From positions 64,001 through 128,000 of the IMG/VR virus record IMGVR_UViG_3300037249_001368: DNA of 64,000 bases; one strand, given 5' to 3'. Shown here in pieces: positions 6,841 to 62,119 of this stretch. How positions within the stretch are numbered: position 1 is the stretch's first letter; each line of letters opens with the position of its first letter. The notes under the pieces were generated by a model that did no database searches, had not been told where the DNA came from, and saw only the letters and a list, made by a program, of their open reading frames with translations. The translations under genes were made by a program, and so were the position numbers. The stretch comes from a virus (lineage: Duplodnaviria > Caudoviricetes).

Positions 6841-6888
6841 GTAACAAGGTGATTACAATTCCAAATAATTCTGAAAAGCTGATTTAAC

Positions 6889-12224: not shown

Positions 12225-12836
12225 ATGGCTACTGCTGAATCAATATTCCCGCACGTCGTACAGAGCACTGCAGCGGTGAACAGGTATGAACCTGTTGTAC
12301 CGTCCAACTTCAACGCTCAGTTCATTCTCGAGGGTTATTTGAAGGAGAAGTTAGGCGACTACTCGTTCCTGAAGGAATACGTGAAAGCCGTCAACGGTCT
12401 GTTCGTGGAGTACGCCGGCAACACCATCGAAGCCGGTTACAAGACCACGAGATTCAGATACGACTCCAACGATAAGCAGACCTACTACGAAATCGAGGTC
12501 CAGTTCTGGAACTTCTTGGACAACGAAAGTAAACAGTATGTCTACAACGCCCTCGTTGCTTGGTCCCGCATTAAGTATAATCCGCTGACTGGCGAAAAGA
12601 CCATGAAACGCGATTACGCTGATGCCTCGATTGTCGCCGAGAAATTCAACCGTGACGGTACCATCTTCTGGAGACGTATCGCTCATAATGTCTTCCCGTC
12701 CAGTGACATCGGTGACCAAGGCGCTGATTACGCTTCGCACGACCCCGTTGAGTTGACCATCACTTTCAACGCCGACTATGTTTCAGACGTCACCAACGAC
12801 CCACGTCTTGTTGACAGTCAGACTGGAACATTCTAA
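12225..12836 (+). CDS. Tail tube protein (gp19-like)
   Basis: 203 aa; YNPLTGEKTMKRDYA...NRDG...NVFP...LTITFNADY is the typical tube pattern; downstream of the sheath gene. Confidence 0.85.
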   Translation: MATAESIFPHVVQSTAAVNRYEPVVPSNFNAQFILEGYLKEKLGDYSFLKEYVKAVNGLFVEYAGNTIEAGYKTTRFRYDSNDKQTYYEIEVQFWNFLDNESKQYVYNALVAWSRIKYNPLTGEKTMKRDYADASIVAEKFNRDGTIFWRRIAHNVFPSSDIGDQGADYASHDPVELTITFNADYVSDVTNDPRLVDSQTGTF

Positions 12837-12865
12837 CACGAACATTTGAAAAATGTGAGTGTTAG
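12833..12865 (+). repeat. Post-stop hairpin element, copy 3
   Basis: CTAACAC GA ACATTT GAA AAATGT GA GTGTTAG; perfect 7+6 bp stems with the TAA stop inside the stem. Confidence 0.9.
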
Positions 12866-12932
12866 GTCATAACACAGATAACGCGTACATTTTCAAGGGC
12901 TTTCGCTGGCCTCAACATTTCAATTCTTTGGC

Positions 12933-18300: not shown

Positions 18301-19896
18301 GCCATAAACATTAAAACCGAGAATGTAGATTTATTCATACAGTCAACAGGAAAGATTTTTAGGTCATACACTGATTTCAGTTTAGTTGAGATGTTGGCAA
18401 TGGTTGGTACTTCAATAGCATCCTTGCCACTCATCATAAATTCGTTATTAGTTGCAGGTCTGCTTGCTTTAATCAGTGCTATAAACATTGATGCGGAACA
18501 GATAGACAAATTCAATGATGCTACCGGTAAAATCTTCAGAACTTACGCAAGTTTCAGTCTGAAGGAAATGTTGAAGATGGCTGGCACTGCAGTTGCTTCT
18601 CTACCACTTGTGGTTTCAGCATTAGCCGTTGCTGGTACTCTTCATCTGTTGGGTAAGACCGAACTTTCTGAGCAAAAAACAAAACTATTCATAACAGCCA
18701 TTAAATCCATCTTTAAGGCTTATTCAAGTTTCAGTCTTAGAGAAATGTTGAAGATGGCTGGCACCGCCGAAGCAGCAATGCCAATCGCGACAACAGCTTT
18801 GGCAATGTCTCACGTACTGAAAAACCTGACCGAGGTGGATGTGTCACAACAACAAATTGACAAGTTCACCACGATGGTTGTTGACTTTGTCAAGAATTTT
18901 GCAGAAACTATGGAAGCGACTTCTTCGGATGCTCTGAAAAAGATGAAGAACTCCGGAGAGTCACTAACCAACATAGTTGATATGGCTAAGGGATTTGTTG
19001 ACGTTCTCATTGCTATTGGAAACGGTAAGATTGGCAAATATGAAGTTGACCCAGTAACAGGTCAAGCAAAACTTGTTGATTTTGAGAAATTCGATTTAGA
19101 TACTGTATCTGTTGATGCTGGTCACAAACTTGGTAAGTTAATGGCTGACTTCGCTTCTGCTTATGCTGGTGCTCTTGAAATGAGTAGAAAAGAAGCCAAG
19201 CGTGCAAACAGAGCCAGTGAGGTACTTGCAGGTCTTTCGCCTGTTTTTGAAACAGTTGCTAATCTTGTTTCTGATGTAGAGAAAACAAAATTCTTGAGTG
19301 ATGAAACCCTGATGACTTCTATTTCAAAGAACATGCAAAACTTTGTTTTAGAATCAAAGGTCACATTACAACACATAAACGGTTTGGATGTCAAACAAGA
19401 AAAGTTCAAACTGTTCAAAGACCTCGTTCAGACATTCACACAAGACATTAAGTGGGAACTCGCGATAAAGAATACAGACAGATTCGGTGAAAGCGTTGGA
19501 ACCGTAGTTAAGAACATAAACGGTCTTGACCTTAAGAAAGCGATTCAAATGCAGAACATAGTTGACTCATTTACAAAGATGAGTAACTTGAAAGGTCTGC
19601 GAGACCAAATTAAGGAAATGACCGAGATGCTTAAAGAACTGAATCGTTACAACGAAAATATCAGTGAATCAGCATTGAATGTTTCTAAACAAACCGAACA
19701 AGTTGCCAAGAACCAACAAGCCACTCAACAATTAGTTAAGAATTTGGGTGAGGGTTCGGTGACAACTCAAGACTTGTTTAATGTCGTCAATCAAATCGTA
19801 ACCAACATGGTAACCGAAATCTTGAGAGGCATTGGTGCTAATACCTATGATGTGAATGTCAAGAATCGTGTTAAAATTGATGACAAAAATTATTAA
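15361..19896 (+). CDS. Tape measure protein
   Basis: 1511 aa with coiled-coil ends and a long hydrophobic Ala/Gly/Leu-rich repetitive core; located in the tail module. Confidence 0.75.
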   Translation: MRKKPETVDNTINQGVISIVTFLKKMSDDTDFLKLSVEEIRDSERQYLSIIEALKTNLELYFKRTDVGLKKKTKNDIASSDYTEKLTSIKETLDSLANGELMTKISSIEATLREIKNDMARQKTVGAPTKITGGKDLVEKLSSIENIINNIYVELQKKAKSAASSKVEATKVDTSNIEALSKSLSQLASTVSRKTNVALRRFIRLLNTLTSKDMAGQVKVSAAAFTDLSKQLSTIGTGLEKADTHMKKFMKGLTVFTLFMLSPTFSKAVTVFTKLMDAINKPKTTNVNKQATQWKWIFFSLALGIGTLVLALMNLENINWGKVLYLVGFLAAVSAAMYFGTRNMRNLTSVTGINKVKNKQSLKLNNNNSLAMQMLFLSVGLAVLLLAIDAIREIDWAEAGKLILFLLAVQTIMMVSDIIIGRKGAGLKGGMGILGFAIGVSILLLAIDAGKEVFFGSKPFSEDPKSWIGPWAVVGFIFIMALILGKSGIGRGNGGAAAQMLKFALGFAILLLAIDAGKEVFVKAFKAGEWYGVWGAIGFVLLMTFALGKSGIGQGNGGVAGQMIKFAAGLVILVGALWLMTELVEASGFWKTAGAVVLLAGTVFGLAFIVKQMSVQLKGVKRKQVFEDLLLLAAVAGLGTTIFAAIAAIQKLLGADNGKILGVVLIIMGTVLALGYGIYFVNKIIEEKKLTPAKIKKAEKFIIESLGIFALGVIVYAMIAATQKYLGADNAKVLGATQIIMLTLVEMLVLVWGVVQITKKMKDSDIAKGMLVVAAAAGLMILASMIYVIIAESQKGGVDNKKILGATQIMVLTIVEVLALVLIIGAITSNPFGAAVVGAGMAFMAALVGIVLMAAAALYIIGKSEADEEKVQFFINSTTKILLLFTNFTLPQMLAMLGMSLVAVPLVASALIMALTLALISAVNLDDAKIETFIESSRKIFLMYTQFSLGEMLAMVGLAVASLPLVINSLLMAGLIALISAINIKTENVDLFIQSTGKIFRSYTDFSLVEMLAMVGTSIASLPLIINSLLVAGLLALISAINIDAEQIDKFNDATGKIFRTYASFSLKEMLKMAGTAVASLPLVVSALAVAGTLHLLGKTELSEQKTKLFITAIKSIFKAYSSFSLREMLKMAGTAEAAMPIATTALAMSHVLKNLTEVDVSQQQIDKFTTMVVDFVKNFAETMEATSSDALKKMKNSGESLTNIVDMAKGFVDVLIAIGNGKIGKYEVDPVTGQAKLVDFEKFDLDTVSVDAGHKLGKLMADFASAYAGALEMSRKEAKRANRASEVLAGLSPVFETVANLVSDVEKTKFLSDETLMTSISKNMQNFVLESKVTLQHINGLDVKQEKFKLFKDLVQTFTQDIKWELAIKNTDRFGESVGTVVKNINGLDLKKAIQMQNIVDSFTKMSNLKGLRDQIKEMTEMLKELNRYNENISESALNVSKQTEQVAKNQQATQQLVKNLGEGSVTTQDLFNVVNQIVTNMVTEILRGIGANTYDVNVKNRVKIDDKNY
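18037..18921 (+). repeat. 177-bp (59-aa) tandem repeat within the tape measure gene
   Basis: ATGTTRGCnATG / ATGTTGAAGATG recur at 18037, 18214, 18391, 18568 and 18745. Confidence 0.8.
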
Positions 19897-19957: not shown

Positions 19958-20323
19958 ATGGTACCGTTATTCGAGGAAGATAATTTTAGTGTTAAGATTA
20001 AGAAAATCAGAGACGTCTATGCAAAAAAGCGCGACGCCCTGAAAGAATCAAAGGAAAAGAAACTTGAGAATCTTCGCAATCAACGTGACCAGAAACTTGA
20101 GAACACTCACGGTCACCTCGAAAAAGCAAAAATCCGTTCAGACTTTGCTAAGAAGAGTGACCAGTTGAATTACAAAACAGAGGTCGAGATTGACAAGTTC
20201 AGAAAACAGCGGGACGAGGCGATTAAGAAAATCAAAGAACAACGTGAGAAACTGAAAGTTGTCAACAAAACCACAAAAACCGTCAAAGAAAAATCTACAA
20301 CCAAATCTAACACAACCAGATAG
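19958..20323 (+). CDS. Basic Lys-rich coiled-coil protein
   Basis: 121 aa; preceded by TAATAAATA (19925-19933). Confidence 0.7.
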   Translation: MVPLFEEDNFSVKIKKIRDVYAKKRDALKESKEKKLENLRNQRDQKLENTHGHLEKAKIRSDFAKKSDQLNYKTEVEIDKFRKQRDEAIKKIKEQREKLKVVNKTTKTVKEKSTTKSNTTR

Positions 20324-20348
20324 CACGAACATCCGAAGGATGTGAGTG
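20321..20348 (+). repeat. Post-stop hairpin element, copy 4
   Basis: TAG CAC GA ACATCC GAA GGATGT GA GTG. Confidence 0.9.
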
Positions 20349-20366
20349 GTAAAAATTTTATTTTCC

Positions 20367-20870: not shown

Positions 20871-22634
20871 ATGAAGCTAAACACAGGACTAAACATATTG
20901 TATGGCAAGAACCTCGACGCCAAGATTTCTAAGAAAATCTTGTACGCGAACACCAATGGTAAGTTACAGAACCAAAAAGTTCTGAATAAAGCCGTTGGTA
21001 TTCCGAGCGACCCGTTGTATTTGAACAACAACGATATGTTCTATGCCAGCTACAATCCTGACATCAGATACAGAAACTATTTCCAGTTCTCGTCATTAGC
21101 AAACATTGAGTATCGTAATGCGTTACTCCTGTTTGCTGAAAACAAGAAAATCAAAAAGGCCGTGAAAATCATGGCTGATGAAATGGTTGTTGTTGATAGT
21201 GATGCTCAGCGTTATCCTGTTCAGCCAGATATCAACATCACCAAACTGGAAACAGATAAGCAGAAAGTTGGTACCGCAATCGTTGATTATCTTGACAATG
21301 TCTTTTATCCGAAACTTTGGAGAATGTACGACTTCGACAGTTTCGGTGATGGTGGCATAATTGATATGTTGAAAGAGTTCCTTATCACAGGAAAACTGGC
21401 ATGGGAAATAATTTATGACAGTATCAAGAACCCCAAAGACATTATTGGTTTGCAACCGTTAGACCCAACCACGTTACAGAAATACAAGGTTGGTGATGAC
21501 ATATATTACGTTCAGAGAACAGTGTTTGATGGACGTGAAAGAATCCTCCACGAAAACCAAGTAATCTTGGTTGAGTGGAATAAGTATGACTTCGGGTATG
21601 TTTCTTATGTTGACGGTCTACGACTGTCATACAACATAATGAACTCCATGAACACCTCCAAAGCGTTATGGTTTGCAGCAAAATCCCAAGTGAGGATGCA
21701 CATCAGATTAGCGCTTGGTGACGTGTCAAGGGACGAAGCCGAACAAAGACTTTCTGAAGCCGCTCAGCGCTATACGAACAACTTTAAGTTCAGCGAGGAT
21801 GGTGTGGTTCTGTTTAACAACCAACCAAACAATTCAGGCTACAGAGAGTTCTTTACTGGTGAAACATCTGTATCAGGTCATCCTGAAATCGAGGAAGTAA
21901 ACGCCAACGGTCCCGACTTAACCGAAACAGATTCATTATCCTATTGGGAGAAACTCTATTGGGAAGATACGGGAATACCGTTTGACAGAATCGACCCTAA
22001 CAACAGTGATAACTGGGGGTTCCTCGACGTAGAATCACTCAAGAAAACCGAAATCATTTTCGCCAAGGACGTAGAAGCCATTCGACGTATGTTGAATGAC
22101 ATTTGGATGAAACCAATCATCATTCAACTAACACTGAAAGAGGTAGAAATTGGAATTGACCTCAGCCTGTTGGATTCAATCGAACTGAAATGGGCATCGT
22201 ACAACCAGTACGAAAAGATGGCAGACTTAGGAATCCTTGAAAAGAAAGTAGGTATCGCACAGAACATCAAGGACTTTGGTACCACCATGAACGCCGCCGA
22301 TAAGGAAGTCCCGTTCTTCTCGGTCAACTGGCTCACCCGAAACATTTTGGGTTACGACGAAGCCACAATCAAACTCATCAAAGAAGCCAGACGTCTCGAA
22401 TACGAAGAACTTGGTTTCGACGAGAACGGTTGTCCTAAGAAGGAATTTGTTGACGCGAGCATGGGTTCGTTAGGCGACATGGGATTGGGTGACATGGGTG
22501 GCGGTAGTGGTGATTTGGATGACCTGTACGGTGGTTCCCCAGAAGACGAAGAACCAGAAAATTCATCCGATGACGAGGAACATTTCGTCGAAGATGAAGA
22601 AGCAATTTCTGATTCGGATGATTCACAGCTTTGA
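20871..22634 (+). CDS. Portal protein (gp20-like)
   Basis: IIGLQPLDP, YWEKLYWEDTGIPFDRI, KTEIIFAKDV and FSVNWLTRNILG follow the T4 gp20 pattern; acidic C-terminal tail. Confidence 0.85.
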   Translation: MKLNTGLNILYGKNLDAKISKKILYANTNGKLQNQKVLNKAVGIPSDPLYLNNNDMFYASYNPDIRYRNYFQFSSLANIEYRNALLLFAENKKIKKAVKIMADEMVVVDSDAQRYPVQPDINITKLETDKQKVGTAIVDYLDNVFYPKLWRMYDFDSFGDGGIIDMLKEFLITGKLAWEIIYDSIKNPKDIIGLQPLDPTTLQKYKVGDDIYYVQRTVFDGRERILHENQVILVEWNKYDFGYVSYVDGLRLSYNIMNSMNTSKALWFAAKSQVRMHIRLALGDVSRDEAEQRLSEAAQRYTNNFKFSEDGVVLFNNQPNNSGYREFFTGETSVSGHPEIEEVNANGPDLTETDSLSYWEKLYWEDTGIPFDRIDPNNSDNWGFLDVESLKKTEIIFAKDVEAIRRMLNDIWMKPIIIQLTLKEVEIGIDLSLLDSIELKWASYNQYEKMADLGILEKKVGIAQNIKDFGTTMNAADKEVPFFSVNWLTRNILGYDEATIKLIKEARRLEYEELGFDENGCPKKEFVDASMGSLGDMGLGDMGGGSGDLDDLYGGSPEDEEPENSSDDEEHFVEDEEAISDSDDSQL

Positions 22635-22660
22635 CACAAACATCTAAAATGTGAGTGTCA
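22632..22660 (+). repeat. Post-stop hairpin element, copy 5
   Basis: TGACAC AA ACAT CTAAA ATGT GA GTGTCA; the TGA stop pairs with the terminal TCA. Confidence 0.75.
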
Positions 22661-22688
22661 GTAATTAATACATAGAAAATACAAAACC

Positions 22689-35689: not shown

Positions 35690-36172
35690 ATGCCAATCGA
35701 CAAGAGCCACATTGGGATTACAACTCGGAAACAAAAACCCCAAGGTAGAGGTTACCATTACAAACAAGGCCATTTTGAGGACTATTTCAAACCTCAAAAA
35801 TACTACGGGGAATATCCGATAATTTTCCGTTCCGAACTTGAGTTTAAGTACATGGTTTCATTGGAGCGGAATCCCAATGTGGAGCGCTGGTCGTCGGAAA
35901 AGATTGTTATACCTTATTTCATGAAAGAAAAAATCAATGGAAAGGTCGTTGAAAAGAAACATGACTATTTCACTGATTTTGTCGTACACATGAAATCAGG
36001 TTCAATCTATGTTATAGAAGTCAAACCATACGCTCAGTGCCCTCGCTACAAAAACCAGATTGCGAATGACCCAGTTATATACAAAAATGCTTGCAAGTGG
36101 AACGCAGCTATAAACTGGTGTAAACAGAATGGAATGATTTTTAAGGTGGTTACCGAAAAAGACATTCACTGA
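35690..36172 (+). CDS. Head completion nuclease (T4 gp4-like, TnsA fold)
   Basis: PQKYYG..IIFRSELE...WSSEKIVIPY...YFTDF...IEVKP...KWNAA..WC....FKVVTE. Confidence 0.9.
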   Translation: MPIDKSHIGITTRKQKPQGRGYHYKQGHFEDYFKPQKYYGEYPIIFRSELEFKYMVSLERNPNVERWSSEKIVIPYFMKEKINGKVVEKKHDYFTDFVVHMKSGSIYVIEVKPYAQCPRYKNQIANDPVIYKNACKWNAAINWCKQNGMIFKVVTEKDIH

Positions 36173-36215
36173 CTGAGTAATAAATACTTATTCCTAATCA
36201 TAAAAATTCATAATC

Positions 36216-36797
36216 ATGTACGAAGCCCTAAAACAGACTATCAGTCAAAAAATAAACGACAATACTAACAAGGAAATTACTCCTGCCAAAGTGCGTGAAG
36301 CCCTGAACGCGATGGTTGATTCACTCGGCGCAAATTCCCAATTCGCCGGCGTTGCTACCACGTCAACCAATCCAGGAACTCCTGAACAGAAAGTGTTCTA
36401 TGTTTTCGCCAACGAAACCAATGCCGCTGTTCAGTTGAGCAACTTTGGTAACGTGAACGCTCCCGCCAACTCATTCTCAATCATCAGCAATGCCACTGGT
36501 TCTTGGGTTCTGACGACTTTACCAGTCGAACTTACATCTAAACAATCAGTGGTTCCTGTCAGAATAGAGACAAACGACTGGAACGAGAATGTCGCTGAAG
36601 TCAGTGTATCAGGCGTAATCGCCGACGACGATGCCCAAATGGTTCAAATCGTTCCCAAACCCGCCTCAGCTGAAGACTTCGCCGATGCAGGTGTTGTTTG
36701 TACGACGCAATCCAACGGCAGTCTGTCGTTCTCATGCACACAAACACCAGAAGCAGACATCGAGTTGTATGCGGTGCTCACCAAAATATCTCTTTAA
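36216..36797 (+). CDS. Structural protein with a Bacteroidota-phage-type domain
   Basis: NTNKEITPAKVREAL and FAGVATTSTNPGTPEQKVFYV resemble N-termini recalled from Bacteroides/Prevotella phage fibre proteins. Confidence 0.55.
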   Translation: MYEALKQTISQKINDNTNKEITPAKVREALNAMVDSLGANSQFAGVATTSTNPGTPEQKVFYVFANETNAAVQLSNFGNVNAPANSFSIISNATGSWVLTTLPVELTSKQSVVPVRIETNDWNENVAEVSVSGVIADDDAQMVQIVPKPASAEDFADAGVVCTTQSNGSLSFSCTQTPEADIELYAVLTKISL

Positions 36798-36820
36798 GTA
36801 ATCACTAAAAATCTGAAATC

Positions 36821-37444
36821 ATGGCATCACATAAAATGAAATATCTGGTCATTCACTGCACGGCTTCACCGCTGACTGATGCCGTGACACCAGATTTAAT
36901 CTGTCAATTACATATCGGACCTAAGAACAACGGTGACGGAACTTATCTGTTTAAGTCAAAGACTTACACCAAAAAACAGATGGAAAACAAAGTCATCAAG
37001 TTATGGTCAGGTGCAAAGATTAAGGCTTTATCAGCCAACGGAAGAGGATGGCGTCAGGTTGGTTACTCTGACATGATTAACAGCAAAGGCCAGCTGATTA
37101 ACTTGGTGCCATACTCTTTTGACGAAGTTTTGAACTCGTACGAAGTCACCAATGGTGCTGCAGGTTATAATTCTGTTTCTCGTCATGTGGTTTTAGCGGG
37201 TGGTTACATCCAAAGAAACGGTGTATGGATTAAGAACGGAAAAGACCCCAAAACAGGTCTTTACTTACAACCTGAAGAACTTTACACCGAGGATATGATG
37301 CGTACCTTGAGAGCATACATCGAGATGCAACTCAGAATGGTTCCTTCATTAATAGTTGTCGGTCACAATCAGTTGACCAACCAAAAAACTTGCCCAAACT
37401 TTGACGTCAGAAAATACTTAGAAAGAGAGGGACTTCTGAAATGA
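36821..37444 (+). CDS. N-acetylmuramoyl-L-alanine amidase (endolysin, Amidase_2)
   Basis: IHCTAS, GWRQVGY, GHNQL and KTCPNFDV give the Zn-ligand pattern of T7-lysozyme-like amidases. Confidence 0.9.
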   Translation: MASHKMKYLVIHCTASPLTDAVTPDLICQLHIGPKNNGDGTYLFKSKTYTKKQMENKVIKLWSGAKIKALSANGRGWRQVGYSDMINSKGQLINLVPYSFDEVLNSYEVTNGAAGYNSVSRHVVLAGGYIQRNGVWIKNGKDPKTGLYLQPEELYTEDMMRTLRAYIEMQLRMVPSLIVVGHNQLTNQKTCPNFDVRKYLEREGLLK

Positions 37445-38391
37445 AACACATATTCCAATCAATAAACCTCCACGGAAACATCATCACTGATGGTGGTTCG
37501 ACTTGGCCAACCGAGAACAAACACATAGCCAATAAGGAGTATGTCGACCGTAAATTTGCCGAAGCAACTGGCACTGACTTTTTCAAGGAAGGTGAGGTGA
37601 CAGGGCAATTCTTCATCAGAAACACCAATCCTTATAAGTTAGGTCCTATCGAACGCAACAACGGTTGGGAAGCATTTGTTTTAACTACAACTGTCTTTAA
37701 CAATAGACCTAATGATACCACACCGACCGTAAGTATGCAGATTGGTGAAACCACAATTAGTTTCACCAACGTCGATGCCACTGCTTCTGATTATGGATTT
37801 ACGCTTGGTGTCAACCAACATTTATATCGTTACCTCTGTAACAGTGCCATTGGGACAGGGTATATTGGTAATGATTCAGTTGTGACTATTGAACAACTTT
37901 TCTCGTATGTAGAAATCGGGGAAGACAGTTATGAGGAAGCAACCGTTACCACCACAGACACACTCAACGGTTTAATGTTCAAGTTCGTCCCTGTGATTTC
38001 AACTTGGTTTGATAAGGAACTTGAGGAGTTGGATGACGAATTTGAATATCCGTATATCACCGAGTTAGGAATTGCTTCGACAACGGCACAAAACATCAAT
38101 GTCAAGTCTTTAACGACTTTGGACAACGGGACTCCGATACCCCAAAACTACTACATTGTGATTCCCGAAAACGATTATCTGCCTAATAACAATTCCCTGA
38201 TTGGTTTTTATTATTGGTTTAAGGATAATGAAACCAACGAATGTGTATCAGAAAAGACATTCCTTGACATCAGCGATGCTCAGCGAGTCACATGGCTTGA
38301 TGTTGATTGTGATGTTCTGTTTTTCAATTTTGGATATATAGACGTTCCAAACAATCAGTTATCATTAGTCGTTGACTCCATATTTTATTAA
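37441..38391 (+). CDS. Hypothetical structural protein
   Basis: 316 aa; HIANKEYVD is common in fibre-associated proteins. Confidence 0.65.
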   Translation: MKHIFQSINLHGNIITDGGSTWPTENKHIANKEYVDRKFAEATGTDFFKEGEVTGQFFIRNTNPYKLGPIERNNGWEAFVLTTTVFNNRPNDTTPTVSMQIGETTISFTNVDATASDYGFTLGVNQHLYRYLCNSAIGTGYIGNDSVVTIEQLFSYVEIGEDSYEEATVTTTDTLNGLMFKFVPVISTWFDKELEELDDEFEYPYITELGIASTTAQNINVKSLTTLDNGTPIPQNYYIVIPENDYLPNNNSLIGFYYWFKDNETNECVSEKTFLDISDAQRVTWLDVDCDVLFFNFGYIDVPNNQLSLVVDSIFY

Positions 38392-38394
38392 AGC

Positions 38395-39402
38395 ATGTTC
38401 ACCTATTTTGCCAAAGCATTTAAGAGAACTAAAGCAGTTCCGATTGACGCACATTTCATAATCGCTGACATAGCGGGTGTAGACCGATATATACCAATAT
38501 CTCTCAGATACGAGGGTATGGTATTTTACACTTTGGCAGAAAAAGCCTACTATCATATAGACCAAGCACTGCAGCCAGTAATGTTCAGTCGTGGTGGAGG
38601 CAGTTCAGGTGAAGGAGGTGTCATTGTTTGGAATGTCAGGGATGCTAACAACTACCTCAATTACACAGAACTCTATTACACATTAAAAGCTTACCCCGCC
38701 GGCTCAATCGTAAGAGTAGAACCGTTAGGTGTGAACTTTTTGGTGGAAGCATCATCAGATGGAAACACTGTCAGAATTGACCCGAACACCAAAGAAATAC
38801 ATTTTGAGTTGTATGACATCGGTGGAAGCAAAGGTGTTGAGATTGAATCATTCCTGATTTGGTCAGAACTTCCCGAGAACGCTGATTTGTACGCCGACAA
38901 CATAATGGATGGCGGTACAACAACCCCAAATGAAGAAGTATTCAGGATTACCGACGGTGTCATTCATGATTACATCCCCGAAATCACCGAAGTAACCACC
39001 TACTACCAAGGTCGTTTCTACAAAAATGGTGATGTTCTGTATTTGTGTAATGGAACCAGTCAGGGCAGAGATTCATTAATCACAATCGCCAGCAGTGGTG
39101 GAGGTGGCGGTGGAGGCGGAACCACCAATTATATTTTGTGGCCGCAAACATCACTTGTAATCAGTGACTCAGTCACGACTCCCTACGTACATCTGAAGGA
39201 TGACACCAAAAATAATATCACAACTGGTACCATTGGTAGAATCATAAGCGAGTTATACGGTATTGTTCATGAATCAACTCAGACAGCAACCATCGTAGAA
39301 ATGAGCTTCATCAACAAGGTACCAGAAAATTCAAACAGTTCAGTAATCGTCCAAAGTCGTTACAATACGGTGATGGACTTAATTGGAATATACTATGGCT
39401 AA
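38395..39402 (+). CDS. Hypothetical structural (fibre-associated) protein
   Basis: PIDAHF...LRYEGMVFY and poly-Gly linkers. Confidence 0.65.
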   Translation: MFTYFAKAFKRTKAVPIDAHFIIADIAGVDRYIPISLRYEGMVFYTLAEKAYYHIDQALQPVMFSRGGGSSGEGGVIVWNVRDANNYLNYTELYYTLKAYPAGSIVRVEPLGVNFLVEASSDGNTVRIDPNTKEIHFELYDIGGSKGVEIESFLIWSELPENADLYADNIMDGGTTTPNEEVFRITDGVIHDYIPEITEVTTYYQGRFYKNGDVLYLCNGTSQGRDSLITIASSGGGGGGGGTTNYILWPQTSLVISDSVTTPYVHLKDDTKNNITTGTIGRIISELYGIVHESTQTATIVEMSFINKVPENSNSSVIVQSRYNTVMDLIGIYYG

Positions 39403-39517
39403 AGAAAAAACCGAAGGAAAAGTGGTAAACCTGTTCGAGGACAATGGCAACTTCCATGACGAAGACGCCTTACAAAAGTCATACGAAAGGATGCCTGAAT
39501 CTGACAAGCGTCAGTAA
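39395..39517 (+). CDS. Small hypothetical protein (40 aa; absent from the ORF track)
   Basis: MAKEKTEGKVVNLFEDNGNFHDEDALQKSYERMPESDKRQ*; overlaps the upstream stop. Confidence 0.5.
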   Translation: MAKEKTEGKVVNLFEDNGNFHDEDALQKSYERMPESDKRQ

Positions 39518-39579
39518 TTTGCAACGAGAGAAGTAAAGATTTTTTGCTTTCATAAAGATTTGATTTTAAGGTTTTCGGA

Positions 39580-39599
39580 GGCCCGTGGAAACACGGGCC
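39580..39599 (+). other. GAAA-tetraloop hairpin in the tRNA 5' leader
   Basis: GGCCCGTG-GAAA-CACGGGCC. Confidence 0.7.
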
Positions 39600-39604
39600 G
39601 AAGG

Positions 39605-39675
39605 TGCCTGATGGTGTAATGGCAGCACGACAGATTTTGGTTCTGTTTGTGGAGGTTCGAATCCTCCTCGGGCAA
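39605..39675 (+). tRNA. tRNA-Gln (anticodon UUG), no encoded CCA
   Basis: Acceptor TGCCTGA/TCGGGCA, D-arm GTGTAATGGCAGCAC, anticodon arm ACAGA-TTTTGGT-TCTGT, T-arm GGAGG-TTCGAAT-CCTCC. Confidence 0.95.
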
Positions 39676-39682
39676 CGTTTTT

Positions 39683-39990
39683 AGGGGTGTCGTTGCGAGA
39701 CGGCATCCCGCCTCTTATATCAGAAGAGAGTCCTGTTCTGCGTCCTTCGTCGGCGAACACCAAGACGGGTGTCAGGCCATCTACCGATGATATGTTCCGT
39801 GGTTAGCATTTCTTCCACAGAAATTAGTCATTGGTGGACGTTCAAAGTCCTAAGATTTGTAGTAACAAAGTCATTGACTTGTCGAGGGATTCGCGATAAC
39901 TCGGTTCACACTTCTTTGACAAAGGCTGGGGTTGGTAACCAAATAACCTACCTAACACGGGGAGGCTGCTAAAAACAGCTTCCCCGTTTT
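39683..39990 (+). ncRNA. Putative structured ncRNA downstream of the tRNA
   Basis: Several 10-11 bp stems with many G-U pairs; no convincing ORF; ends in a terminator-like hairpin. Confidence 0.55.
39957..39990 (+). terminator. Rho-independent terminator
   Basis: ACGGGGAGGCTG-CTAAAAA-CAGCTTCCCCGT followed by TTT. Confidence 0.75.
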
Positions 39991-40074
39991 GCTGATAACA
40001 ATCAAGTATTTTTATTTGTCTGCCTAAGAATAAAACTCAGATTGGTTTTATAAAGTATTAGAAAATTCCCATCT

Positions 40075-41637
40075 ATGCTTATAGATTTCATACAAAACCA
40101 AAACTCTGTTGAATTTAGTTATGTAAATAACAAGGGTTATATCGAAGTCGAGGAACTGTTTATGGAGCCAAACTCTCCAAACGGTTTTTATCAGATAATG
40201 GAGACAACCGAGGACGACCCCGATAAACTACAGAACTTATCTTCATTCAGAGGAAGTCCGTTGAAAAAGGAAATAGCCAAGTCCTTCAGAAAACTTAATC
40301 AGAACGAGTTCATCAATGTAACACTCAAGGAACTTAATCCAGAGCTTTATGAAAAGATTAATTGGTTGAGAGAGCCAAAAATCTATTCAATCGACATTGA
40401 AACACAAATCACTGACGAGTATGGATATTCTGATGAAGACCATGCAGATAACGAGATTATTTCCATTTCGATAACCAATGAAAATCTGAATACGATTCTA
40501 TTCATTGTCAAGAATCCTAAGGAACCGCTTAAGGAACTTCCGATAAAGAGCAAAAACTACATTGAGTCTTTGTTAGAAGCTCAACTAGGAAAATACTACA
40601 ACATGGCTGGTCCTAATCAGAACCAACCTTGTGCTTTTTCGATACAGGAATTTGATACTGAAGCGGATATGTTGGTTGCGTTTGTCGCAGCAGTCCAAAA
40701 ATATTTCCACATGATTATTGGTTGGAATATTTTTGGTTATGACTTGAAATACATTTTTAAGCGCTGTGATAAGTTAGGTATTGATTACAAGAAAATGAGT
40801 CCTGTCAATGCCTTAGCACCTGAGAAGAAGTCAATCAACTTGGCACTCGAAGTTCCGCTGAAATATCCAAGACACAGATTAGCAGCAGATTATATGAGGA
40901 TATTCAAGGCATCTGAAACTTTCAGAAACCTTGATTCATATTCTCTCGATAATGTTTCCCACGTAGTTCTTGAATTGGGAAAGGTAACTTACGAAGGGAA
41001 TCTACGAAAGTTATATGAAGATGATTATCTTAAGTTTGTTGCTTATGCGTTGGTTGATACCATATTGGTAATGCTGCTTCATCTACAAACAAATCTTCTC
41101 AGCACATATTTCTTCCAAAGTTATTATAACTCATTGCCTTATATGCGTCTCAATCAAAATCCTATATCTGAGGCGTTGATTTACAGGGAATTGAGGAGAA
41201 AGAATTTGTTCATTGTAGAATCAGAGTATCCCAAAAAGGTTTATAACTCATATCCAGGAGGTTTTGTAAAACTTCCAACCGTCCACGAAGTGTTAGCAGC
41301 TATGGGTATTGACTTTAACTCACTGTACCCAAATGCTATGATTAGTTGTTATCTTTCGTTTGACAACAAGTTTGATGACACAATTAAGATGGATGAGTTT
41401 GGTAAACCAATCAATGAGTTTAACCGAGCAAAGTTTGAGAAGTATAAATCTATGGGCTACTGTATAACCCCGATGGGAAGAATTTACAAAGCAGATGAAA
41501 ATAATATATACACCCAAATAGAAAAAAATCTTCTTGCCGAGCGTAAAATCTACAAAAAAGCGAAGGAGGATATTTACATGAATATTATACCTTCGATTGA
41601 GGCAGAGATTGAAAGAAGAAAGACATTAAAAGTTTAA
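40075..41637 (+). CDS. Family B DNA polymerase, N-terminal part (exonuclease plus palm motif A; gp43A-like)
   Basis: ExoI SIDIET, ExoII GWNIFGYD, SYSLDNVS, ExoIII YALVD, YPGGFV, motif A DFNSLYPN; ends after ERKIYKK. Confidence 0.9.
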   Translation: MLIDFIQNQNSVEFSYVNNKGYIEVEELFMEPNSPNGFYQIMETTEDDPDKLQNLSSFRGSPLKKEIAKSFRKLNQNEFINVTLKELNPELYEKINWLREPKIYSIDIETQITDEYGYSDEDHADNEIISISITNENLNTILFIVKNPKEPLKELPIKSKNYIESLLEAQLGKYYNMAGPNQNQPCAFSIQEFDTEADMLVAFVAAVQKYFHMIIGWNIFGYDLKYIFKRCDKLGIDYKKMSPVNALAPEKKSINLALEVPLKYPRHRLAADYMRIFKASETFRNLDSYSLDNVSHVVLELGKVTYEGNLRKLYEDDYLKFVAYALVDTILVMLLHLQTNLLSTYFFQSYYNSLPYMRLNQNPISEALIYRELRRKNLFIVESEYPKKVYNSYPGGFVKLPTVHEVLAAMGIDFNSLYPNAMISCYLSFDNKFDDTIKMDEFGKPINEFNRAKFEKYKSMGYCITPMGRIYKADENNIYTQIEKNLLAERKIYKKAKEDIYMNIIPSIEAEIERRKTLKV

Positions 41638-41655
41638 TATCAAAAATTTACAGAC

Positions 41656-42231
41656 ATGCCTGAAGACGACAACAAATTACAGGAAGGTCAGGAAAACGGT
41701 GAAATCCAAGAACTCGCCGACCAAATTTCCGAGAACCTGACAGGTGAAGGTGGCGAAGCCCCTGAGACTCCTGAGACTCCACAAGCCCCTGAGACCGAAA
41801 CTCCAGACAAGGAAGGTGAAAATGGTGGTACCGAAGAGCCGAATCCCGAGCCGAATCCCGAGCCGAATCCCGAGCCAACTCCGACACCAGAGCCTAATGG
41901 CGGTGGCGAGACCGAAGATGCCGAGGAAGAACAAGAAGTCCTTGGCAAGAAACTGACAAACGAACAAATTGAAGAAATTCGTCAGTATCTGAAAAAGACA
42001 CCTGAATCAAAAGAAGAAGCACTCGAGACCATCGAACAAATGGTTAAATTGTGTATCACTAACCAAGGCTGTGTTATCAGCAGTGGTTTGTATGAGTACA
42101 ACACTTGGGAAGCAATCTCAAAAGACATCCTTTGGTGGTGCGACAAAGCTCCTCGCTTCAACGTCGCCTATCCGTTGGAAACCATGTTGGTTGGTTATCT
42201 GATTGACAACAAAGCTGTGATTGGATATTAA
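41656..42231 (+). CDS. Hypothetical protein with an acidic Pro-Glu repeat N-terminus
   Basis: PETPETP and EPNPEPNPEPNPEP (GAGCCGAATCCC x3 at 41836-41871). Confidence 0.75.
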   Translation: MPEDDNKLQEGQENGEIQELADQISENLTGEGGEAPETPETPQAPETETPDKEGENGGTEEPNPEPNPEPNPEPTPTPEPNGGGETEDAEEEQEVLGKKLTNEQIEEIRQYLKKTPESKEEALETIEQMVKLCITNQGCVISSGLYEYNTWEAISKDILWWCDKAPRFNVAYPLETMLVGYLIDNKAVIGY

Positions 42232-42320
42232 CGTTAAGATTTATCAGCCTAAATAACCATAGTAGTTTGGTCAATCATAAAAAAGATGTCCTATAATTAA
42301 CCACTATAATCTTAAACGAT

Positions 42321-43271
42321 ATGCAAGTATTAATCAAAAATTTCGACTTGAAACTTTTTAAGTCGTTAATCGAGCAAAACTTGTTGGTGCAGAACGAGAT
42401 TTCAATTAACTTCGGTCCTGAGGTTGTGAAATCCTACGCATTTACGAGTTCCAAGTCCTTAATGAAAATTTGGACTGTGAGCACGAAGTCATTAATCAAG
42501 GAATCTGAAGAAGGCGGAGTCATTGATTTTGACGACGATGACCTGACCCCGAAGAGTACAGAACTTGAGTTCGAGCCATTCGACTTCTATGTTCTGAAGG
42601 GAGACATGTTCAAGAAGTACCTCAGTATCTTCAATGACGAACCCGTGACGATGATTATCGAGGTTGACGAAGAAACCAACATCGGTACTCTGATGACGAT
42701 TCAGGGCTGCTCAGCTTACCAATCCCGCTTACAGACCAAGTACAATCTTTGCAGCGACGAGCTGATTGTCAACAAGATTTCGTCTTTCGACCAAGCCATG
42801 CAAATGGTCCAGGAAAGTGAAGACGATATGCACTTTGTGATGACAAAGGAGGAGTGTGACGAAGTCAAGAAACTCATCCAACAGCTACACAAGTCCAACC
42901 CCGAGAATACCAGTTTCATCACCTTCAAGGTTGACGTCGCCCGCAAAATCATCAATGTTTCCGATAAGGTGTTCAGCGTGAACTTCCAACTTCAGAAATC
43001 GGCCGACATTGAAATCCCGAGTAAGTCGTTTGAGTTCAACCTGCTCAAGTCCGACTTTATCTCAACTGGTAACCACGTGTTCCACTTCTTCGTGGAAGAC
43101 AAACCGCAAGGAAAGGTCATTCTCAAAGCCGCTTACAAGAATTGCATCAACATCTACTGCATGGGTTATGCGATTACCTATGACAAGCAGGAAGAGAACA
43201 CCACGGTGTCTGACATTGACAGCGTGTCTGATGATGTCATTGACATTGACGAATATTTCGGAGATAACTAA
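42321..43271 (+). CDS. Probable DNA sliding clamp (gp45-like)
   Basis: Alternating helix/strand two-domain pattern, acidic, between the polymerase halves; clamp loader is in the window. Fold inferred. Confidence 0.5.
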   Translation: MQVLIKNFDLKLFKSLIEQNLLVQNEISINFGPEVVKSYAFTSSKSLMKIWTVSTKSLIKESEEGGVIDFDDDDLTPKSTELEFEPFDFYVLKGDMFKKYLSIFNDEPVTMIIEVDEETNIGTLMTIQGCSAYQSRLQTKYNLCSDELIVNKISSFDQAMQMVQESEDDMHFVMTKEECDEVKKLIQQLHKSNPENTSFITFKVDVARKIINVSDKVFSVNFQLQKSADIEIPSKSFEFNLLKSDFISTGNHVFHFFVEDKPQGKVILKAAYKNCINIYCMGYAITYDKQEENTTVSDIDSVSDDVIDIDEYFGDN

Positions 43272-43317
43272 AATCTTGACATATCGTTGACTTTCCCAGC
43301 CCGTCAGGGCTATGAAC

Positions 43318-43351
43318 CCACCCACGACTGCAAAGTCGTGGGTGGTGCTTT
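43318..43351 (+). terminator. Stem-loop (GCAA tetraloop), terminator or leader
   Basis: CCACCCACGACT-GCAA-AGTCGTGGGTGG followed by TGCTTT. Confidence 0.65.
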
Positions 43352-43363
43352 ATAACATAAATT

Positions 43364-44668
43364 ATGGATTTTCTTGATAATTACAATCGTCTAAAAACAG
43401 AAACACAGGACTTATCAAAGTTCACTGATGAGGAACTTGAAGAGATTCTCCGTGTAGCGAAACTTCGCGAAAAGGAGTACGACAATCTACAACTTGTCAT
43501 TAAGCGTAATTGTAATTCTCTGTATGGTTCAACTGCATCAGAATACTTTGATTTCTGTGATACCGATATTGGCGAGGATATTACGACTATATCAAGGCAC
43601 TTCGCTATATTGGTGGATATCGCCATAAACAAGTTCTTGACGAAGTGGGCTGATGATGAAAAATCTCTGCAAATCATGCGAGAGTTTTATCCAGACACGG
43701 TTTCACTCAAAAACTTGTATTACGTCAGAGACACGGTTAATGACGTATGTGTGTATGGTGATACTGATTCTCGGTATATTGATGTTAGTAAAGTTATGTC
43801 GCTCGTGATTGGACCTAATGGTCCAAGACAGTTACCGCCACAAACATCAGAAGGTAACAAAGAACTTGCAGACTTTGCTTCATTCTTTGATGAAAAATTC
43901 CTCAACGCAATCATCAAAAAAGCAATCGACGACGATTTGGAATATCGTAATGGTAACAAGGGACATTTGAAGATGGCCCACGAAGTTACGACCAGAAAGT
44001 CAGTGCTCCTGTCCAAAAAGATGTATATCATGCCTCTGATTTGGAAGGATGGTGTGTATTTCTCCGAGAATCCAAAGTTGAAGTACATGGGCGTTTCCCT
44101 AAAACGAGGCGAAACGACACCAGAACTTAAGAAAATAATCGAAAAACTGGTTAGAAAATATTTGGTTGATGGTTTGACGATACAGGAAATCAGCAAGGAG
44201 TGTCGTAAAATCAAAAACTACATCATAAAAACCAACAAAAAGAAAATTGTTTGTCGTTCTACATCTGTAAGTGGTGTTAAGGAAATGACTTACACCGTCG
44301 AGAAAGATAAAAAAGTTTGGTCGATACCTAAAAATCATCTACAAGCACAACTTGTCGTGAATTGGGCAAATTTCTTGGAGCAGAATGGTTTGCAGGATGA
44401 TTACAGACTTGCGTTTGAAAAGCAAAAAATGTATTATTACAAGACGTTGGGTTCTGATTATACCGTGATTGGGGTGCCCGATGATGTGGATATTGATAAA
44501 ATCCCGAATATGCCTCCAATCAACTGGCATGAAATGATTAATAGTCAATTCTTGAAACCTCTTATGAAATGCTTATTTGAGTACCCCGATAAGTACGAAA
44601 TTACCGAAGCAGATTGTAATGATTTCTTGATTGGACTGAATCATCAGGCAATTCAAATTAAAGTTTAG
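43364..44668 (+). CDS. Family B DNA polymerase, C-terminal part (motifs B and C, thumb; gp43B-like)
   Basis: QLVIKRNCNSLYG (motif B), YGDTDS (motif C), KKMY, KLKYMGVSLKRGETT. Confidence 0.9.
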   Translation: MDFLDNYNRLKTETQDLSKFTDEELEEILRVAKLREKEYDNLQLVIKRNCNSLYGSTASEYFDFCDTDIGEDITTISRHFAILVDIAINKFLTKWADDEKSLQIMREFYPDTVSLKNLYYVRDTVNDVCVYGDTDSRYIDVSKVMSLVIGPNGPRQLPPQTSEGNKELADFASFFDEKFLNAIIKKAIDDDLEYRNGNKGHLKMAHEVTTRKSVLLSKKMYIMPLIWKDGVYFSENPKLKYMGVSLKRGETTPELKKIIEKLVRKYLVDGLTIQEISKECRKIKNYIIKTNKKKIVCRSTSVSGVKEMTYTVEKDKKVWSIPKNHLQAQLVVNWANFLEQNGLQDDYRLAFEKQKMYYYKTLGSDYTVIGVPDDVDIDKIPNMPPINWHEMINSQFLKPLMKCLFEYPDKYEITEADCNDFLIGLNHQAIQIKV

Positions 44669-44712
44669 TAATAATAAATAACGGCTAGTAACAATTTTCA
44701 ATTCATAATATT

Positions 44713-46282: not shown

Positions 46283-46633
46283 ATGGCAAAATACCTCGAA
46301 CCCGATAAACTGACAAAGGATTATGAAGATTCTTTGAAAGCAGGGAAATGTAACGATGCACTGCTGAAAGACTTTCAGTTGATTGCTGAAAATTCCATCA
46401 GAAGGCTGAATAATGGAAATGAACAACACATAGATAAGGACGTCTGTATCAACTACGCCGTCACTGAAGCATGGCGTAAGTGGAAATCATACGACACAAA
46501 CAAATCAACCAACATATTTTCGTTTTACACAACTATGATTCTCAACGATATGCGTATACATTATAATTACCTGAACCGTTGGAACGGTAGATGTATAAGT
46601 ATGACTCTGTTTGAGAACGCTGATGAAGATTAA
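46283..46633 (+). CDS. Late-transcription sigma factor (T4 gp55-like)
   Basis: LIAENSIRR and SYDTNKSTNIFSFYTTMILN align by eye with T4 gp55 LIAEGLSKR and [20 protein letters not shown]. Confidence 0.75.
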   Translation: MAKYLEPDKLTKDYEDSLKAGKCNDALLKDFQLIAENSIRRLNNGNEQHIDKDVCINYAVTEAWRKWKSYDTNKSTNIFSFYTTMILNDMRIHYNYLNRWNGRCISMTLFENADED

Positions 46634-46677
46634 GCGCGAACGCGAAACGCGAGCTATTATCATAAATCCGATAAGTT

Positions 46678-53952: not shown

Positions 53953-54035
53953 CAGCAGAATATTTTTCTTCAGACAAAAATCCATATTTATAAGTTTTCA
54001 GCCTAATCAAGCCAAAAAGCTTGGTTTATATCACT

Positions 54036-59819: not shown

Positions 59820-60677
59820 ATGTCAATATCGAAGTTCAAGGATTTTATCAAGAGATGTGTAACAGTTGTTGCGTCAAGAGAGTTTGCATTTATTTACTGC
59901 CTTTTAGGAACCTTTGGTGAAGTAGCGCATTGTTATTTTCTATTAGATTCAGTATCATCATTTAATGGTTTCTTCAAACATTTCCAAGCAGGGGTATTAT
60001 CATTATTCATATCTTCGTCACTGATGTATTTCGTTTCCATCTCGGATTCAAGTGATGAAGAAACAGAACAGAAGCGTATCAGAAGAGCAGTAAACCTGTT
60101 CATGGTTATGGAAATACTCATGAACATGTATTACTATTGTCAGCACCTTATCATAAAAGCAGAAACCATGAGGTTGTTTGATTTCATCTTCGGTACCGTA
60201 ATTTCATGTCTGATTCCTGTAACTATTAAATTGTACTCGAACTCCATTAAAGCCAAACAATGGATTAATGAAATCGAAAGTCAGCAATCGAATGACACTG
60301 AAAATGTAAATCAGCCTAATTCATCCCAAGAACCTGGTTTATCAAAAAGTGATGTCCAAGAAATTGTAAATGTCACAGTCCAAGAAAAAATCAAAGAAGT
60401 TGAGATACCAATTAACAAAGAACAAGTCCAAAAAACAATAGATGAGGTTTTAGATGAAAGATTAAAAGAAAAGACCGCTGAAGATGGGTATTCTGTTGAT
60501 GACTTATTGTTTGAAAGCAAGTTGAAAGCCATTGTCGAGGAGAAAGTCAATGAAGCATTGAGACAGAACCCAGACGTAAAAACAAAGGAACTTCTTAAGA
60601 GTCTCGTAATCGAACAGTTTGAGAAAATACAAAAATCCAACGAAGAATATATCGACAAAAAACTTGAAGAAAAATGA
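59820..60677 (+). CDS. Membrane protein (about 4 TM) with a coiled-coil tail
   Basis: Hydrophobic N-terminal half, charged C-terminal half. Confidence 0.7.
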   Translation: MSISKFKDFIKRCVTVVASREFAFIYCLLGTFGEVAHCYFLLDSVSSFNGFFKHFQAGVLSLFISSSLMYFVSISDSSDEETEQKRIRRAVNLFMVMEILMNMYYYCQHLIIKAETMRLFDFIFGTVISCLIPVTIKLYSNSIKAKQWINEIESQQSNDTENVNQPNSSQEPGLSKSDVQEIVNVTVQEKIKEVEIPINKEQVQKTIDEVLDERLKEKTAEDGYSVDDLLFESKLKAIVEEKVNEALRQNPDVKTKELLKSLVIEQFEKIQKSNEEYIDKKLEEK

Positions 60678-61624: not shown

Positions 61625-62073
61625 ATTGTTTCTTTCATATTTTCTTATCGAGGGTCGCAACCCAAAATTCTTACATCAGGGATTGTGTTGCTTGGATAGA
61701 CCAAAACATCAAAGGCAACTTCCCATACAAGATTTACTTCTCTGATAAAAGATTAAATCTAAAGGACTTCAATGCCAATCTTAAGCCAGCCAATACCAAC
61801 ATCATTATGTGGGATTCTATGCTGGTAAAAGAAAACTTTGAAATTACGGAGTTGGGCGACGTCAATGTAATTTTTCTGAAGCACAAAACAGAAATTTTCA
61901 AAAACACTAAATCCAAAAACGAGGCGGTTGATGAAAATTTTCTGTTGTTCAATGGTTTCAAATGTGTGTATCTAAACCCCGATAAGAACGAAACGAATTA
62001 TCAATACGACACCATAATTTCCGAGGACAAATACATTTTTGATTTGTCGAAGTATACAAACAATAAAGCATGA
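61621..62073 (+). CDS. Hypothetical protein
   Basis: ATG at 61621 overlaps the gp44-like stop (ATGA). Confidence 0.7.
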   Translation: MNCFFHIFLSRVATQNSYIRDCVAWIDQNIKGNFPYKIYFSDKRLNLKDFNANLKPANTNIIMWDSMLVKENFEITELGDVNVIFLKHKTEIFKNTKSKNEAVDENFLLFNGFKCVYLNPDKNETNYQYDTIISEDKYIFDLSKYTNNKA

Positions 62074-62093
62074 ACATCTGAAAGATGTGAGTG
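62069..62093 (+). repeat. Post-stop hairpin element, copy 6
   Basis: CAT GA ACATCT GAA AGATGT GA GTG; the TGA stop (62071-62073) lies inside the element. Confidence 0.85.
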
Positions 62094-62119
62094 ATTAAAA
62101 ACCTAAACAATCATTAATC

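Follow-up and report, generated by a model that had tools for sequence, protein, structure and literature searches.

A hairpin-capped, non-coding stretch behind a phage tRNA-Gln gene: a probable tRNA trailer or an RNA in its own right?

Introduction

Why should a gene-dense phage genome keep about 310 nt of DNA directly behind a tRNA gene without an open reading frame (ORF) to fill it? The question is raised by the tRNA-Gln(UUG) locus of a tailed phage (Duplodnaviria; Caudoviricetes) represented by the IMG/VR virus record IMGVR_UViG_3300037249_001368, which has 178,153 bp and a completeness estimate of 77%. The DNA analysed here, referred to as the window, comprises bases 64,001–128,000 of that record (64,000 nt). 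Positions are those of the window, and places outside it are given as genome positions. The original prediction, made by a model from the letters alone, proposed that the stretch encodes a possibly new structured non-coding RNA (ncRNA) that is co-transcribed with the tRNA and released from it.

Our answer is a more ordinary one. We put the probability at about one half that a tRNA-Gln cassette ends here in its 3' trailer (external transcribed spacer), either inert or related to processing, and we rank this first and a selected, stand-alone ncRNA second. In other words, on present evidence, the stretch is best regarded as an ordinary lineage-specific tRNA trailer. Below, we set out the layout of the cassette, the evidence that the trailer is non-coding, the signals by which it is probably transcribed, its predicted fold, and its distribution among related phages, and we weigh the alternatives where the evidence bears on them.

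The tRNA-Gln cassette

The elements of the cassette are as follows, P being the predicted probability of the pairs.

39580–39599, + strand: GAAA-tetraloop hairpin of 8 bp, G+C-rich, ending 5 nt ahead of the tRNA 5' end (P = 1.0)
39605–39676, + strand: tRNA-Gln(UUG), CCA not encoded (ARAGORN; Rfam RF00005, 62.9 bits)
39677–39683, + strand: U-rich linker GUUUUUA, from the tRNA 3' end to the first trailer hairpin (read from the sequence)
39684–39709, + strand: trailer hairpin 1, 11 bp with a GCGA tetraloop and 3 G-U pairs (P 0.94–1.0)
39710–39926, + strand: central domain of 217 nt, predicted to form an irregular long-range stem closing a three-hairpin junction (minimum free energy (MFE) fold and ensemble; pairs P 0.85–1.0)
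39780–39838, + strand: hairpin C, with a 12-bp basal helix, internal loops, GUGG/CCAC, and a 12-nt apical loop (pair probabilities)
after 39926, + strand: linker of 30 nt, from the central domain to the terminator hairpin
39957–39992, + strand: intrinsic terminator, a 12-bp hairpin with a 7-nt loop and UUUU (helix search and pair probabilities)

The GAAA hairpin ahead of the tRNA, the tRNA-Gln itself, and the final terminator (stem 39957–39968/39976–39987, then UUUU) were recovered as originally described, and so was the hairpin behind the tRNA, whose start had been placed one base off. The terminator has both the G+C-rich hairpin and the U run that define such elements; a consensus scanner did not list the hairpin, and its U run is short.

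Coding potential and known RNA families

The trailer is non-coding. Its longest frame (67 codons, 39769–39969) has a codon score of -0.19, to be compared with 0.28 ± 0.11 for in-frame pieces of real genes and -0.62 ± 0.25 for off-frame pieces. Six candidate ORFs, from either strand, were all missing from a set of about 15 billion predicted proteins; because this set includes the same contig and its close relatives, no gene caller called a gene in the trailer. A word-based search of 5.8 billion protein clusters found no homologue of a trailer ORF, and Pfam and PHROGs gave no match below E = 0.05. When 1.84 billion representatives were searched exhaustively with phmmer, a single match emerged (P0147, 97 aa), which was rejected as a homologue: it is the translation of a 12-copy tandem repeat, and its E-value merely sums twelve weak matches. 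The low codon score and the lack of homologues in these protein collections bear out the original view that there is no credible ORF here. An unannotated gene for a small protein of 61–67 aa (39769/39787–39972) is therefore hardly credible: a 67-codon frame is indeed open and ends inside the terminator stem, but its score lies about 4 standard deviations (SD) under that of real genes, it is uncalled in every record with the exact sequence, and the protein searches gave it nothing beyond the one spurious match.

Neither does the trailer belong to a known RNA family. When 39300–40300 was scanned with cmscan against the 4227 families of Rfam 15 (E ≤ 10), the tRNA alone passed its gathering threshold, and four other matches, due to chance, stayed far under theirs at 12.6–20.7 bits (E 1.3–7.6). 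There was no match in that interval to transfer-messenger RNA (tmRNA), RNase P, the signal recognition particle (SRP) RNA, 6S RNA, GOLLD, ROOL, ribozymes resembling that of hepatitis delta virus (HDV-like), or group I introns, in agreement with the original failure to fit the stretch to tmRNA, RNase P, SRP, or HDV-like folds. The library is current, because it detects a permuted tmRNA (RF04321, 67.3 bits) elsewhere in the genome. This two-piece tmRNA lies directly after a tRNA-Ala gene outside the window (genome 9860–10148), and ARAGORN reads its tag as GNNYEMRAAA. A hidden or decayed tRNA or tmRNA within the trailer was rejected after a low-threshold ARAGORN run proved negative.

Theta ribozymes, minimal HDV-like ribozymes that abut the 3' ends of phage tRNAs (PMC10879173), were compared with the stretch. 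The likeness lies in the position directly 3' of the tRNA and in a phage likely to infect Bacteroidota. The difference is that hairpin 1 is unbroken: its P1-like part runs on into its P3-like part, and a P2 strand is missing between them. The motif definition (P1-P2-P3-P1.1, with cleavage at most about 5 nt away from the 3' end of the tRNA) was taken from the same paper. Even a loose descriptor (P1 of 7 bp with at most 1 mismatch, P3 of 3 bp, L3 of 5–9 nt, P2 of 4–8 bp; starts at 39665–39694) found 0 nested double-pseudoknot topologies with a cleavage site at 39665–39694, and there was no HDV-type match in Rfam, so a theta or HDV-like ribozyme was rejected.

Transcription signals around the locus

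The intergenic regions of this genome show a recurrent layout: a terminator hairpin with a T run, then a + strand motif of one of two kinds, and then an ATG. The first kind, TAATAMATA, has 12 copies in the window where 0.83 would be expected, every one of them on the + strand, and resembles the late promoter of phage T4, TATAAATA. The second is bipartite, CWGCCTAA followed after 14 nt by TTGGTTTATA, and precedes many genes genome-wide. Its core, GCCTAA-N12-16-TGGKT, has 5 copies in the window, again all on the + strand, against 0.11 expected.

38181–38206, + strand: promoter-like bipartite motif (CTGCCTAA, 14 nt, TTGGTTTTT) within the 3' end of a 316-aa ORF
40022–40047, + strand: bipartite motif resembling a promoter, which would serve the DNA polymerase gene; it shares 79% identity across 34 nt with 38175–38208
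54001–54026, + strand: bipartite motif
60314–60339, + strand: bipartite motif
63220–63244, + strand: bipartite motif

The first two of these bracket the locus, the second of them lying between the terminator and the ATG of the polymerase gene. Neither kind of motif occurs between 38206 and the tRNA, there is no TAATAMATA in 36186–44672, and the nearest upstream TAATAAATA stands at 36178 (36178–36186). From the positions of the motifs and of the terminator, the tRNA and its trailer would appear to close a polycistronic transcript, whose 3' end lies at 39992, and the polymerase gene would be served by its own promoter. The trailer is probably transcribed together with the tRNA, as a hairpin-capped unit, and the co-transcription that was originally proposed fits the promoter and terminator grammar of the genome. 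A dedicated promoter just upstream of the tRNA was considered and rejected, as loose copies of the TTTTTGCTTTCATAAAGA-like motif number only about 4; TTCATAA was likewise rejected as a promoter, being merely the usual context ahead of start codons in this genome.

The same signals bear on the idea that the stretch is a cis-acting leader or replication element of the polymerase gene, that is, a translational operator, for which T4 gene 43 provides the model, or an origin. Its place directly upstream of the replication module and a possible 11-bp stem (40042–40052/40091–40101) around the polymerase start codon would suit such a role, but the terminator at 39957–39992 and the promoter-like motif at 40022–40047 separate the trailer from the polymerase gene, 5–75 nt suffice in relatives, and there are no iterons and no turn of the cumulative GC skew at the locus. 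We consider this explanation very unlikely. The inverted repeat is worth recording for itself: its 11-nt arms are 91% complementary and flank the start codon at 40075, so that it could sequester the polymerase start site. A complementarity between the anticodon arm of the tRNA and the polymerase start region was judged to be chance.

The fold of the trailer compared with chance

The 319-nt trailer was compared with its own dinucleotide shuffles, a check suggested with the original prediction, and clearly folds better than they do (z = -5.16 or -4.76 in two runs). However, the sequence of this genome generally folds better than its own shuffles, and random 319-nt windows of the same genome have a mean z of -1.34 ± 1.40. 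Only 1 of 49 such windows reached -4.7 or lower, and the trailer therefore stands in roughly the top 2% of the genome. When the two end hairpins are left out, the central 236 nt give z = -2.4 against a background of -1.32 ± 1.20, and 23% of the windows are as low. It is the end hairpins that supply the greater part of the excess stability, z being -4.8 for the trailer as a whole and -2.4 for its centre. The "successive helices" originally described are above the background only in part, the z of the central part falling within it.

Other measures of helical content complete this picture. Perfect local helices of at least 10 bp number 4 in the trailer region, where the mean is 1.2 per 480 nt (top 4% of windows). 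The + strand has a fold energy of -115.1 kcal/mol, compared with -100.7 kcal/mol for the - strand; a difference in this direction is what G-U pairs would lead one to expect.

For the central domain, the fold predicted by ViennaRNA pairs 39710–39754 with 39881–39926, in a stem whose longest helix is 7 bp, and places three hairpins in the junction (39752–39778, 39780–39838, which is the strongest, and 39846–39879). Of the local helices originally listed, the one beginning at 39780–39790 and enclosing GTGG/CCAC was found again as a 12-bp helix (39780–39791/39827–39838, P 0.81–1.0) with its inner pairs at P = 1.0, and the UUUGU/ACAAA hairpin is part of the MFE fold, with one pair at P 0.86. By contrast, CTCTT/AAGAG, TGTTC/GAACA, and TTGTCGAGGGA/TTCTTTGACAA can be drawn, yet have an ensemble probability near 0, because their strands are taken by the long-range stem. 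We prefer neither the predicted long-range fold nor the original chain of hairpins as a drawing of the domain.

Relatives and the origin of the insertion

The place of the cassette can be read from the two genes that flank it. Upstream lies a small gene that is conserved in related phages.

39395–39517, + strand: conserved small gene of 40 aa, codon score 0.39, two variants in the protein collection, aligning with ORFs of the relatives L002–L006
L002, 2369–2509; L003, 2833–2976; L004, 2785–2925; L005, 2548–2685; L006, 2840–2995: homologues of the 40-aa gene (45–51 aa, by alignment)

In these 5 relatives, the homologue stands just upstream of the polymerase gene and shares L-x-E-D, H, and SYE+M-like motifs with the 40-aa protein. 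It should be mentioned that an acidic protein of 40–51 aa is thereby kept beside the polymerase gene across relatives whose polymerases are just ~45% identical, and it may be a polymerase-linked factor.

The gap between the small gene and the polymerase gene is 5 nt in L006, 24 nt in L003, 75 nt in L004, 315 nt in L005, and 491 nt in L002, compared with 557 nt here. The gaps of L002 and L005 are filled by unrelated ORFs (121 aa and 79 aa, respectively), no tRNA occurs at the corresponding place in any readable relative, and the tRNA-Gln genes of the relatives are located elsewhere and have dissimilar trailers. Because the gene pair is adjacent or differently filled in the relatives, the tRNA-Gln and its trailer constitute a lineage-specific insertion at a variable site. 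The polymerase relatives in IMG/VR, found by an alignment-based search, are all at most 47% identical and all lack the tRNA and trailer; as these include relatives at ~45% polymerase identity, the trailer must be young. Relatives at 53–89% polymerase identity (P0002–P0007) and about 14 near-identical variants are known only from Logan/ENA assemblies, as are the cluster members P0123–P0134.

Homologues of the trailer were sought in several ways. A blastn search (word 11) of the intergenic region against 50,697 GenBank phage records, including T4-like phages, matched the tRNA part only. Within IMG/VR, a search anchored on the polymerase as a single protein gave nothing, a pattern scan with the tRNA 3' half gave 0 matches, and scans with two trailer 18-mers gave 0 matches and one chance match (L015, in a high-GC coding region). 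Polymerase searches of JGI metagenome data and of GTDB were also empty, and one 20-mer pattern scan of JGI metagenome data gave one chance match of 22 nt (L066). Among 45 phage tRNA-Gln loci sharing the D/anticodon core, the trailers are unlike this one, and the 14 Rhodothermales and other Bacteroidota tRNA-Gln genes that a GTDB scan with the tRNA 3' half detected have unrelated trailers. Finally, a covariance model built from the trailer core as a single sequence found only itself in its own genome, and nothing in 4 related genomes and 59 loci. The homologues in phage genomes that the original prediction had asked for were thus not found by blastn, pattern scans, or the covariance model in the collections searched, and among the genomes read the trailer appears to be restricted to this lineage.

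The tRNA itself is 85–90% identical to the tRNA-Gln(UUG) of Rhodothermales, Rubricoccaceae, and other Bacteroidota, the 25-nt 3' half being identical. This points, though weakly, to a host among the Bacteroidota, although the G+C content of the phage (0.39) is far under that of the Rhodothermales.

Could the insert be a fossil at the level of DNA, such as a decayed protein gene or a tRNA-carrying mobile element, that does nothing as RNA? Insertions are frequent at this hotspot, where L002 and L005 have unrelated ORFs, the G+C content above that of the surrounding genome would be compatible with a foreign origin, and broken ORFs of 39–67 aa can be read in the trailer. Nevertheless, nothing similar is found in Pfam, in PHROGs, or among the inserted ORFs of the relatives, and the trailer has a well-defined fold that is more favourable for the + strand than for the - strand. 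No inverted or direct terminal repeats occur around the insert, and a mobile element with terminal repeats was rejected for this reason. We regard a fossil as an unlikely, though less remote, explanation than a cis element.

A proposed release of the trailer by tRNA processing

The reading that we prefer, a tRNA trailer, can be put as a sequence of steps. In this lineage, the cassette would have entered the genome behind the conserved small gene (40 aa) and ahead of the split gene for the family-B DNA polymerase. Transcription would start at 38181–38206 and/or at TAATAAATA (36178), read across two protein genes, then through the tRNA into its trailer, and stop at 39957–39992. RNase P would then cut at 39605, leaving the GAAA hairpin and 5 nt as a 3' cap that would shield the upstream mRNA from exonucleases. 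Because the CCA is not encoded, cleavage of the RNase Z or RNase E type behind the discriminator base (39676) would free the trailer. The freed RNA would be about 315 nt long, with its 5' end 7 nt ahead of the 11-bp GCGA hairpin and the terminator hairpin as its 3' end; with hairpins at both ends, it would be protected and would therefore probably accumulate. The end hairpins would help the tRNA to fold and to be processed, stabilise the RNA, and bring about termination, and the central 220 nt would be a folded spacer.

A second tRNA cassette of the phage has a similar build. At the tRNA-Met locus (genome 166825–167216, outside the window), a hairpin also ends 5 nt ahead of the tRNA 5' end, and the trailer of 199 nt is ORF-free, with a G+C content of 0.49 (0.526 for its intergenic region) and z = -2.9. 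This likeness suggests a design common to the tRNA cassettes of this phage, and not a special RNA confined to one site.

On the contrary, several observations weigh against an inert trailer. The stretch of about 310 nt behind the tRNA-Gln is the longest ORF-free one in the 150-kb gene-dense part of the genome. Its G+C content is 0.46–0.50, compared with 0.39 for the genome and 0.36 ± 0.07 for intergenic regions. Its fold is unusually well defined, with an ensemble diversity of 31 (71 ± 18 in random windows) and a positional entropy of 0.44 (0.96 ± 0.24), both the best among 118 random windows. An inert spacer of 220 nt is not something that one would expect a phage to retain for long. Taken together, the ORF-free length, the G+C content, the well-defined ensemble, and the expected loss of an inert spacer favour selection on the RNA. 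The steps set out above also lean on assumptions: the processing sites and transcript ends are deduced from sequence features, and the nucleases are those of general bacterial tRNA maturation.

These observations are the main strength of the reading that we rank second, in which a functional, stand-alone structured ncRNA is freed from the tRNA precursor and its fold is under selection; we think of it as a serious possibility, although one that probably does not hold. It would explain the z of -4.8 to -5.2 for the whole trailer, the hairpin caps at both ends, the G+C content about 1.5 SD over the intergenic mean, and the fact that the central domain taken alone is in the top 8–10% of windows for well-definedness. 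One possible mode of action is that hairpin C pairs, through its apical part, with the mRNA of a 1511-aa gene: 39808–39823 (the 3' half of the apical loop and the adjoining strand) is perfectly complementary over 16 nt to 15464–15479, inside the ORF 15361–19896 (E = 0.011 in the genome), and 7 nt of the match lie in the apical loop. However, this site is about 100 nt inside the ORF and not at its start codon, a coincidence at the level of 1% is not rare across many possible oddities, and the complementarity may be such a coincidence. As for the structure, the z of the central domain is within 1 SD of the genomic mean, and the long-range stem is built of pieces of 2–7 bp. The RNA has no homologue in IMG/VR, in the GenBank phages, in the one JGI metagenome pattern scan, in the 45 tRNA-Gln trailers, or in the four related genomes, and its absence from relatives at ~45% polymerase identity makes it young. 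In its fullest form, this reading would describe a lineage-restricted RNA of ~315 nt with a four-way-junction core that acts in trans, for example on the mRNA of the 1511-aa gene through the apical loop of hairpin C, or as a protein scaffold or decoy; we hold this version to be rather doubtful. That the predicted structure defines a new RNA class is possible.

The genomic setting and other structured RNAs

Long ORFs in the window are all on the + strand. Judged by its polymerase, the phage is closest among cultured phages to Sphingomonas phage PAU (32%), followed by large Tenacibaculum and Chryseobacterium phages (26–28%). Upstream of the locus lies a late module with genes for a head-closure protein (35690–36172), an amidase (36821–37444), and two unknown products. 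Downstream lies the replication module, whose first gene encodes the N-terminal half of the split family-B DNA polymerase (ATG at 40075); the final 80 nt ahead of this ATG are A+T-rich.

The genome also contains a 17-copy family of intergenic RNA hairpins on the + strand, 7 copies being in the window and 10 elsewhere.

1142–1186, 6808–6851, 12831–12875, 20318–20362, 22629–22671, 46629–46669, and 62063–62107, + strand: GA-hairpin copies in the window

In each, a covarying outer stem of 5–7 bp is separated by a tandem GA/GA internal loop from the inner stem ACRUYY/RRAUGU, which is capped by a GAA(A) loop; the consensus is CAC-GA-ACGUCC-GAA-GGAUGU-GA-GUG. The copies lie directly after stop codons and 15–40 nt ahead of the next ATG. 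Double changes occur in 8 of the 12 pairs, and the covariation score of the family is reached by 0 of 500 shuffles. The family has no Rfam match and was not found in four distant relatives; it may be a protein-binding or processing site. Hairpin 39752–39778 of the trailer was tried as a member, since it shares CGAACA...UGU, and was rejected: a model of the family, built on the stems and loops listed above, gives it no score even with the filters off, and the best match in 39500–40100, at 7 bits, is not at that position.

The densest cluster of perfect local helices of at least 10 bp in the genome (up to 7 per 480 nt) is elsewhere, at genome 16361–16841 outside the window, inside a 3.3-kb stretch without + strand ORFs of at least 80 aa.

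Comparison with known RNAs and biological meaning

Phage tRNA regions repeatedly hold unexplained ncRNAs. RNAC and RNAD of T4 are roughly 120–140 nt long, and their function is, to our knowledge, still unexplained after decades. They are non-coding RNAs of unknown function transcribed from the tRNA region (PMC3014915), and are late RNAs visible on Northern blots (PMC9697503). The trailer described here may be comparable to them: it too lies beside a phage tRNA gene, on the same strand, and without an ORF, in a phage with T4-like replication and a T4-like late-promoter style (TAATAMATA). It differs from them in having no sequence homology (blastn), in a predicted length of ~315 nt, and in being known from its sequence alone.

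The large structured RNAs GOLLD (RF01998) and ROOL (RF03087), which were invoked in the original prediction, are also often found by phage or prophage tRNA genes. The trailer is 2–3 times shorter, matches neither model even at E ≤ 10, and has no homologue family that we could find.

An analogue in kind only is offered by Escherichia coli, in which Lalaouna et al. in 2015 reportedly identified 3'ETS-leuZ, the 3' external transcribed spacer of a tRNA, as a sponge of small RNAs (sRNAs). That RNA is about 50 nt long, has defined sRNA partners, is freed by processing, and ends at the operon terminator. Both are of the tRNA-trailer-derived kind, here by deduction, and the trailer of the phage is six times longer and multi-branched.

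The locus shows the layout in a clean form: the insertion has known borders, GNRA hairpins stand at its flanks, a terminator is present, and the promoter grammar has been identified. If the trailer were to act in trans, the expression of a tRNA would be tied to a regulatory output. Should trailers of this kind be selected RNAs, phages would be exploiting the processing of tRNAs as a source of regulatory or decoy RNAs with hairpin caps.

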